Numbered from the stretch's first letter, positions 48,091 to 48,418 are shown. The stretch: 64,000 nt of DNA from an uncultured Clostridia bacterium (GCA_944387435.1 CALXEW010000006.1:2837-66836); one strand, 5' to 3'. Numbers and translations are program-made. The notes: generated by a model from the letters alone, not told the origin.

Positions 48091-48139
48091 GCGCAAAAAA
48101 GACAGCAACAAAACCTATTTCTTAGGTTTCATCACTATC
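48091..48139 (-). terminator. leader terminator hairpin, copy 4
   Basis: GAUAGUGAUGAAACCUA-agaaa-UAGGUUUUGUUGCUGUC followed by UUUUUUGCGC. Confidence 0.5.
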
Positions 48140-48178
48140 TTCTTTATCATTTTTCTTATTTTCTTATTTATTAATAAC

Positions 48179-48241
48179 CTACTTGTGTGTGTGTGTGTGT
48201 GTGTGTACAGCCTCAAGGCTTACATGTTTTACTTCTTTCAT
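48179..48241 (-). CDS. leader peptide MKEVKHVSLEAVHTHTHTHK
   Basis: ATG 8 nt after GAAGGGA. The stop TAG follows the tract. Confidence 0.45.
   Translation of the reverse strand: MKEVKHVSLEAVHTHTHTHK
48184..48205 (-). repeat. (TG)11 on plus, (CA)11 in the sense direction
   Basis: Counted directly from the sequence. Confidence 0.95.
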
Positions 48242-48418
48242 ATTTTTGTCCCTTCTCTTTTGTTATTTTATCCTTAAAATTTTTTTACTTTTTAGTACAC
48301 TCCTATTTTATACATAAATCTTCCTTTTGTAAATAGTTTTTTAATTTTTAATTTAAGTTTATTTTTATATTTTTACTGATATGAATATATTTTATTATTT
48401 TTTATCTTTTCGCTATCT

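Follow-up and report, generated by a model that had tools for sequence, protein, structure and literature searches.

A cassette on the minus strand of an uncultured Clostridia genome is probably a stochastic on/off switch, in which a slippery repeat placed in a leader ORF would control a downstream gene by leader-peptide transcription attenuation. This cassette is copy 4 of five found in a stretch of 64,000 nucleotides (GCA_944387435.1, CALXEW010000006.1:2837-66836), which we call the window, and the coordinates 48091-48333 given for it in an earlier note on this DNA turned out to bracket exactly the unit that runs from promoter to terminator.

A promoter scan detected a sigma-70-type promoter at 48333-48305, made up of TTTACA (48333-48328), a 17-nt spacer, and TAAAAT (48310-48305), with 10 of 12 matches, and in the alignment both boxes fell within blocks conserved across the five window copies. 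The same scan found no second promoter-like site on the minus strand between the terminator of copy 4 and the structural gene. The leader ORF starts with the ATG at 48241, which is preceded at a distance of 7 nt by the Shine-Dalgarno sequence GAAGGGA (48255-48249), and the leader part listed between this ATG and the repeat consists of the codons MKEVKHVSLEAV. A 15-mer, AGCCTTGAGGCTGTA (48220-48206), was found in the conservation scan immediately 5' of the repeat, and has the potential to form a small AGCC/GGCU hairpin. The repeat is the variable element of the cassette; it was found at 48205-48184 as a pure (CA)11 tract, the length reported earlier, and is read as (His-Thr)n. An A-rich spacer of 42 nt separates the tract from an intrinsic-terminator-like hairpin with its T run (48141-48095). 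About 45 nt past the T run, the structural gene has a Shine-Dalgarno sequence of its own, GGAGG (48048-48044), which is conserved in the five copies and placed 9 nt 5' of the ATG at 48034. The gene ends at 46610 and encodes 474 aa, and its ATG lies 81 nt beyond the stop of the longest leader frame, with the terminator-like hairpin between them. When the region 47900-48500 was compared with Rfam, accepting E values up to 10, only a chance-level match to mir-994 was obtained (14.9 bits versus a gathering value of 93, E = 7.5).

The frame in which the tract is left depends on the number of units. At n = 11, as sequenced, the leader ORF (48241-48179) reads MKEVKHVSLEAVHTHTHTHK, finishing with ...HTHTHTHK and the TAG at 48181-48179, 37 nt before the hairpin, and this short frame is presumed to be the OFF state. 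When the gain and loss of units were simulated, one unit fewer led to a second short frame (n = 10 or 13), which finishes with ...QVGY and the TAA at 48173-48171, 29 nt before the hairpin. A long frame was obtained only when n was a multiple of three (9, 12, 15); its tail is ...SRLLINKKIRKMIKKIVMKPKK, and at n = 12 it extends over 48241-48115, reads MKEVKHVSLEAVHTHTHTHTSRLLINKKIRKMIKKIVMKPKK, and closes with the TAG at 48117-48115. This is the frame presumed to be ON. Both short frames close well upstream of the hairpin, and the long one stops where the loop meets the 3' arm. The earlier note had written this third frame as AAG ATA GTG ATG AAA CCT AAG AAA TAG and placed its stop within the terminator loop; translation showed no earlier stop in copy 4 and the same end point, but in the minimum-energy fold the TAG occupies the first three bases of the 3' arm, at the loop/arm junction, and not the loop. 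The orthologous cassettes L077 and L094 have the phase and the peptide tail of the copy 4 long frame.

It had also been proposed that the spacer of copy 4 differs in length from those of copies 1 and 5, that the stem is hence crossed in another phase, and that the survival of an open frame despite this indel was the best argument for selection of translation into the stem. The first two statements agree with the alignment, where copy 4 has 42 nt and copies 1 and 5 have 43 nt, the 1-nt deletion appearing as a gap, and where the phase across the stem is indeed a different one. The third is weak when taken alone, because two of the three stem phases are open in every copy. Across the conserved 5' arm, AAGATAGTGATGAAACC, the open phases read K-I-V-M-K-P-K and D-S-D-E-T, and the remaining phase meets the TAG of AAGATAG 7 nt inside the stem; even a leader that stopped there would probably still count as "on". 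A 1-nt indel was therefore likely enough to keep the frame open. In agreement, when the spacer of copy 4 alone was shuffled, an open frame to the hairpin was not beyond chance (p = 0.39), so the significance of the arrangement rests on the family as a whole.

The hairpin of copy 4 is composed of a 5' arm (48141-48123), the loop AGAAA (48122-48118), a 3' arm (48117-48099), and the T run that extends to 48095. It contains 19 bp and folds with -20.7 kcal/mol (z = -7.0), a value that none of 200 shuffles equalled. The stem is rich in A·U and G·U pairs, the latter accounting for 5 of the 19, and the U run has only 6 bases. The antisense strand reached -8.4 kcal/mol; being G·U-rich and weak on the antisense strand, the hairpin is an RNA structure of the strand that carries the gene. 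The 24-nt segment formed by the 3' arm and the T run is identical in the five window copies. A consensus terminator scan did not call the copy 4 hairpin, and we attribute this to the scan rule, under which extension of the stem into the T run leaves 4 T. An alternative antiterminator, for example one pairing the CA tract with the U/G-rich 3' arm, was not present in a fold of 266 nt.

From this anatomy, the following mechanism is proposed. Transcription would begin at the single promoter (48333-48305), and a ribosome would load at the leader ATG (48241) and read the (CA)n tract. With n not a multiple of three, as in the sequenced n = 11, translation would halt 3-13 nt past the tract, 29-37 nt before the hairpin; the 19-bp hairpin and the U run would then form in the nascent RNA, most transcripts would end near 48095, and the 474-aa surface-protein gene would be silent or expressed at a basal level. 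After replication slippage to n = 9, 12, or 15, the ribosome would travel across the spacer and all of the 5' arm as far as the TAG and physically block the stem. RNA polymerase would continue, and translation of the gene would start at the GGAGG and ATG that belong to it. The RNA polymerase of Bacillus subtilis is often well ahead of the ribosome, and direct anti-termination by the ribosome may therefore need a pause. We infer the terminating action of the hairpin, its relief by the ribosome, and the direction of the switch; the long frame is taken as ON, and the sequenced (CA)11 as OFF, because the logic is the same as that of pil1/pil3 in S. gallolyticus. In that organism, the frame is set by GCAGA repeats within a leader ORF; leaders that are short and stop 28-39 nt before a stem-loop terminator give low pilus expression, and a leader stop in or after the hairpin gives high expression (PMC3894217). 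Switching there is stochastic and driven by slippage, and the effects of mutating the leader ATG, inserting stops, and deleting the terminator fit the model (PMC3894217). That switch was also shown by Danne et al. to function in Lactococcus.

Within the 64-kb window, (CA)10-11 tracts were found five times, versus 0 expected from shuffles, and there were exactly five genes with the GITLIALV N-terminus, paired one to one with the five cassettes. Alignment of the cassettes showed conservation of the promoter boxes and of the leader Shine-Dalgarno sequence and ATG; next in it come an invariant block, GTAAGCCTTGAGGCTGTA, the tract, the spacer, the hairpin, and the Shine-Dalgarno sequence and ATG of the gene. 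The 15-mer AGCCTTGAGGCTGTA was also found at 7244-7258, 23411-23425, 25138-25152, and 59134-59148, directly 5' of every tract. The genes under these cassettes stand singly amid housekeeping genes (fab genes, pnp, clpX, tig, tgt, queA, and thyA). The copy 3 gene is split into the overlapping ORFs 24465-24962 and 23828-24523 (23828-24962 in all), which points to a frameshift, so the gene is probably either a pseudogene or affected by an error of sequencing or assembly. Cassette 4 has immediately upstream of it, at 48429-49022, a 310-bp tandem duplication (1.9 copies, 90% identical) whose unit is the 3' end of a PD-(D/E)XK (PDDEXK_2, Rpn-like) transposase gene; the ORFs involved are 48729-49583 and 48419-48709, and the duplication yields a 96-aa partial copy. 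The structural gene of copy 1 is followed directly by a YhgA-like Transposase_31 gene (4640-5710), so that genes for recombination-promoting nucleases flank two of the five loci. Between cassettes 4 and 5, on the opposite strand, a TnpB/IS605 OrfB-type gene (51099-52352, plus strand) contains OrfB_IS605 and Cas12f1-like TNB domains.

To place copy 4 within its family, one genome per species was scanned for GCCTTGAGGCTGTACACACAC, and more than 102 loci were obtained, all of them in metagenome-assembled genomes of uncultured gut Clostridia of human, rabbit, or chicken origin. A total of 171 non-redundant cassettes could be sorted by arrangement: 72 had the terminator arrangement seen in the window, in 47 the tract was in the N-terminal leader of the gene itself as an in-frame fusion, in 20 the long frame ended at or over the Shine-Dalgarno sequence or start of the next ORF, and 32 were unclassified. 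The 72 terminator cassettes were pooled, as a non-redundant set, from the genome scan, the metagenome scan (about 20), other samples, and the window. The long frame reached the hairpin in 71 of these 72, and both short frames stopped more than 15 nt upstream of it in 67. For the 56 terminator cassettes from the genome scan, exactly one frame was open from tract to hairpin in 54, versus 20.8 expected from spacer shuffles, and the full design, in which one frame is open and each of the others ends more than 15 nt before the hairpin, was found in 52, versus 14.1 expected. The long-frame stops of these 56 cassettes were in the 5' arm (9), the loop (23), the 3' arm (15), or after the hairpin (7), and the remaining 2 were 1-4 nt before it. 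Spacer and hairpin sequences of the same cassettes formed 17 clusters at 70% identity and 8 at 60%, and over the latter the product of the null probabilities was about 1e-5; average linkage was used because single linkage at 60% merged all the AT-rich spacers into one cluster.

A start codon with a Shine-Dalgarno sequence, 5-7 codons before the conserved SLEAV, was present in most of about 94 related cassettes. Moreover, paralogues do not share the peptide that is read from the stem, which is DSDET in some and IVMKPKK in others before the stop; with this peptide not conserved, it is the act of translation that is conserved. The model in which translation of one repeat-dependent frame enters the terminator stem and relieves termination is supported by the comparison across the family and by the precedent of S. 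gallolyticus pil1/pil3, and it agrees with all the features that could be examined in silico.

The hairpins and spacers of the family fall into several groups of dissimilar sequence that keep the same position and the same relation to the frames, and across these groups the hairpins end in TCTT and a run of five or more T immediately behind the stem. Within the AAGATAG hairpin family, exchanges among G·U, A·U, and C·G leave the pairing intact, a supportive but modest observation, since only 12 pairs could be aligned, most changes were one-sided G·U/A·U exchanges, and double changes were found in 2 pairs. The occurrence of dissimilar hairpins at one position is a stronger argument than this covariation. 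The relation between frame and hairpin establishes only that the ribosome has to get as far as the hairpin and says nothing about the hairpin's action; it would also suit a mechanism in which translation of the long frame acts after transcription or through Rho, and not by blocking an intrinsic terminator. The ribosome could, for instance, remove a hairpin that destabilizes the mRNA or serves as a processing site, or it could cover a stretch of about 140 nt that would otherwise be untranslated and allow Rho polarity. Polarity of the latter type, induced by frameshift and dependent on Rho, is known for siaD of N. meningitidis and provides a parallel, and the lack of a call in the consensus terminator scan points the same way. 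We nevertheless consider this explanation unlikely, because the TCTT and T run directly after the stem in dissimilar groups are what marks an intrinsic terminator, the leader RNA contains very little C except in the tract, and the tract is translated in all frames. In addition, deletion of the terminator locked expression on in S. gallolyticus (PMC3894217).

The tracts of related loci are pure and have 7-20 units. Loci were grouped as having near-identical flanks when neither the 80-nt 3' flank nor the 40-nt 5' flank had more than 3 mismatches, and the number of units differed in 13 of 15 such groups (e.g., 13-19), with both long and short states represented. The long frame was found in about 28-30% of the terminator and fused cassettes, near the one-third expected for an unbiased switch. 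The copy 5 tract (59114-59133) has 10 units in the window, whereas the ENA record for this contig (L111, BRZ_EL NODE_271 of assembly ERZ24773313) shows 11, with no other difference over 2.5 kb; the discrepancy reflects either two assembly versions or an ambiguous consensus at the tract. Copy 2, with 11 units in the window, was found with 10 in a different sample, and the copy 1 tract, which is interrupted by CG, has equal length in the window and in three further samples. A pattern specific for copy 4 gave 0 matches in the metagenome scan, and the sole other contig with the copy 4 gene begins inside the hairpin loop and lacks the tract and the 5' arm; the variability of the repeat is therefore demonstrated at other loci and not at copy 4. 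In other samples, the contigs of L108, L113, and L104 begin inside or beside the CA tract or the hairpin, as would be expected if mixed tract lengths disrupt short-read assembly.

These data also bear on whether the leader and its tract are a decaying remnant of a fused arrangement that exerts no control at present. Fused relatives do exist, one locus (L019) looks like an intermediate, its long frame passing through a hairpin-like region into the gene, and the five window copies are all in short frames in the present assembly. Yet a neutral remnant in DNA of 28% G+C would gather stops quickly, and here the promoter, Shine-Dalgarno sequence, ATG, and the combination of one open and two early-closing frames have been kept over 8-17 divergent clusters. 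The tracts have remained long and pure while varying between near-identical loci, and the promoter scan left the gene with no other promoter. A vestigial leader is thus very improbable, and an operating attenuation switch is the reading we retain.

The relatives with other arrangements are informative about the direction of such a switch. In the fused cassettes and in those with a hairpin sequestering the ribosome-binding site, the long frame is the productive one in each case. The fused examples (L003, L006, L018, L074, L081, L095, L098, L101, and others) encode pilin-like and other membrane-anchored proteins. In the coupled class (e.g., L146, L147, L170, L007, L116, and L126), the long frame usually either crosses a hairpin between the Shine-Dalgarno and anti-Shine-Dalgarno sequences (-11.8 to -20 kcal/mol, z from -3.8 to -6) or ends in an ATGA or TAATG stop-start overlap. 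At L024 (minus strand, offset 1179) and L053 (plus strand, offset 1510), the leader motif is retained and (CA)n is replaced by (TA)7 or a TA/CA mixture. The module was also found in 19 predicted viral contigs from IMG/VR (L235-L253), and the classifiable ones have translational-coupling outputs. In one of them, L252, the controlled ORF of 127 aa matches the C-terminal end of the tail-fibre PHROG 2712 (E = 2e-23), a similarity that suggests phase-variable phage tail tips.

When the metagenomes were scanned with a codon-degenerate pattern for Leu-Glu-Ala-Val, exactly CTTGAGGCTGTA was used in 76 of 82 matches, and it was preceded by AGC in 72. This near-exclusive codon use beside the tract indicates that the 15-mer has been conserved as nucleotides while its surroundings diverged. 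The result is relevant to the idea that the His-Thr-rich leader peptide is itself functional, or that the polarity is reversed, with expression lowered by the long frame. In favor of this idea, SLEAV(HT)n is conserved, and some attenuator leader peptides are described as acting in trans (PMC7298713). Against a functional peptide, the conservation is at the level of nucleotides and not of the peptide, and the long-frame tail is completely different between paralogues and between clusters. Against reversed polarity, the long frame is necessarily productive in the fused relatives, and the long peptide corresponds to high expression in S. gallolyticus (PMC3894217). Both variants together are extremely improbable, and the long frame continues to be treated as ON in the attenuation model.

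The 15-mer AGCCTTGAGGCTGTA and (CA)n may well constitute a portable phase-variation module that is shared by Clostridia chromosomes and phages, with the 15-mer having a function of its own. As judged by sequence, this module would be reused with three read-outs, namely in-frame fusion, an intrinsic terminator, and an RBS-sequestering hairpin or stop-start overlap, and at least one phage ORF apparently under its control resembles a tail-fibre tip. Possible roles of the 15-mer include a pause hairpin that synchronizes ribosome and polymerase, a structure that promotes slippage, or a handle for recombination.

The gene downstream of cassette 4 had been described as intact, and we found it to be a 474-aa ORF (46610-48034) with full-length homologues, 7951 in number and all unnamed. 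The N-terminus of the protein is pilin-like (MKRNKRILKRKEQ-GITLIALVITIIILLILAGV), with a basic leader ahead of GITLIALVITIIILLILAGV, and continues into a long helix and an ectodomain rich in beta structure. N_methyl (Pfam PF07963) matched with 18.8 bits, below the cut-off of 21.2, and the mature N-terminus would be ITLIAL, with Ala and not Glu at +5. No prepilin peptidase, assembly ATPase, or platform protein was found by Pfam among 30 further ORFs of the window. The label of type IV pilin was rejected because the motif is sub-threshold, Glu5 is absent, and the window ORFs scanned include no pilus machinery; from its sequence, the product should be called only "pilin-like". NCBIfam gave only sub-threshold noise, such as FliL. 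FGE-sulfatase was matched weakly by two paralogues of the window and appears in the precomputed annotation of several homologues. The AlphaFold model of the protein has a pLDDT of 76, and its best PDB match was FGE 5nyy, which was not significant (E = 0.17), so for kinship with the FGE-sulfatase fold there is no more than a hint. The gene is followed on the same strand, after a gap of 139 nt, by genes for a response regulator (45772-46470) and a histidine kinase (43690-45759), and both neighbors are likewise present in another sample (L104).

The principle of attenuation by a repeat within a leader is known already, and the copy 4 family is an independent, non-homologous, multi-copy, widely distributed, and modular variant of it. 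In the opa genes of Neisseria, CTCTT repeats in the signal-peptide region form a translational switch inside the coding region. As in systems of that type, the number of repeats here sets the frame, and one frame of three is productive; the 47 fused relatives are exactly so, whereas the copy 4 tract is in a separate mini-ORF, and the gene has its own Shine-Dalgarno sequence and ATG. The leader ORF of pyrBI in E. coli runs through the terminator hairpin, and a closely following ribosome blocks the stem with no antiterminator involved. The model proposed for copy 4 would share this direct block of the terminator stem by the ribosome; the signal in pyrBI is physiological, i.e., UTP-dependent polymerase pausing, whereas here it would be genetic, i.e., the frame set by the repeat. 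In Clostridioides difficile, a Clostridium relative, phase variation of the surface protein CwpV proceeds through an intrinsic terminator in the 5' leader of cwpV. That system resembles the present one in its terminator-based switching of a surface protein, but the switch is a DNA inversion by a recombinase, and it has neither leader peptide nor repeat. The closest likeness is in the order of the elements: S. gallolyticus pil1 has a promoter, a leader ORF with a non-triplet repeat, a stem-loop, and surface-appendage genes, arranged as in copy 4 (PMC3894217), with no sequence homology between the two. The unit is CA here (2 nt, 7-20 copies) and GCAGA in S. gallolyticus (5 nt, 13-23 copies), one frame of three is long here whereas both +1 and -1 changes give long frames in S. 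gallolyticus, and the target is a single pilin-like gene here and a sortase-pilus operon in that species (PMC3894217). Unlike the streptococcal system, ours is present as five copies in 64 kb, is hosted by uncultured gut Clostridia and phages, and has a (CA)n leader module that is also joined to fusion and translational-coupling outputs. No description of a (CA)n module in Clostridia was found in the literature searched.

Repeat-controlled leader-peptide attenuation has hitherto rested on one experimentally characterised system, pil1/pil3 of S. gallolyticus. The module family described here comprises more than a hundred loci in uncultured gut Clostridia of humans, rabbits, and chickens, and what is new is the further occurrence of this leader module in direct fusion with genes or in combination with RBS-sequestering hairpins, viral contigs included. 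The three natural read-outs on one input module offer a ready comparison for the study of ribosome-polymerase coupling in Firmicutes, and they could serve synthetic biology as compact stochastic switches. The reading of metagenome assemblies is also affected, as contigs break at the tracts and a consensus number of repeats hides the heterogeneity of the population. For the bacterium itself, the presence of five switches in 64 kb would mean that a single strain could express its surface proteins in 32 combinations, and such combinatorial switching bears on the evasion of immunity and of phages.
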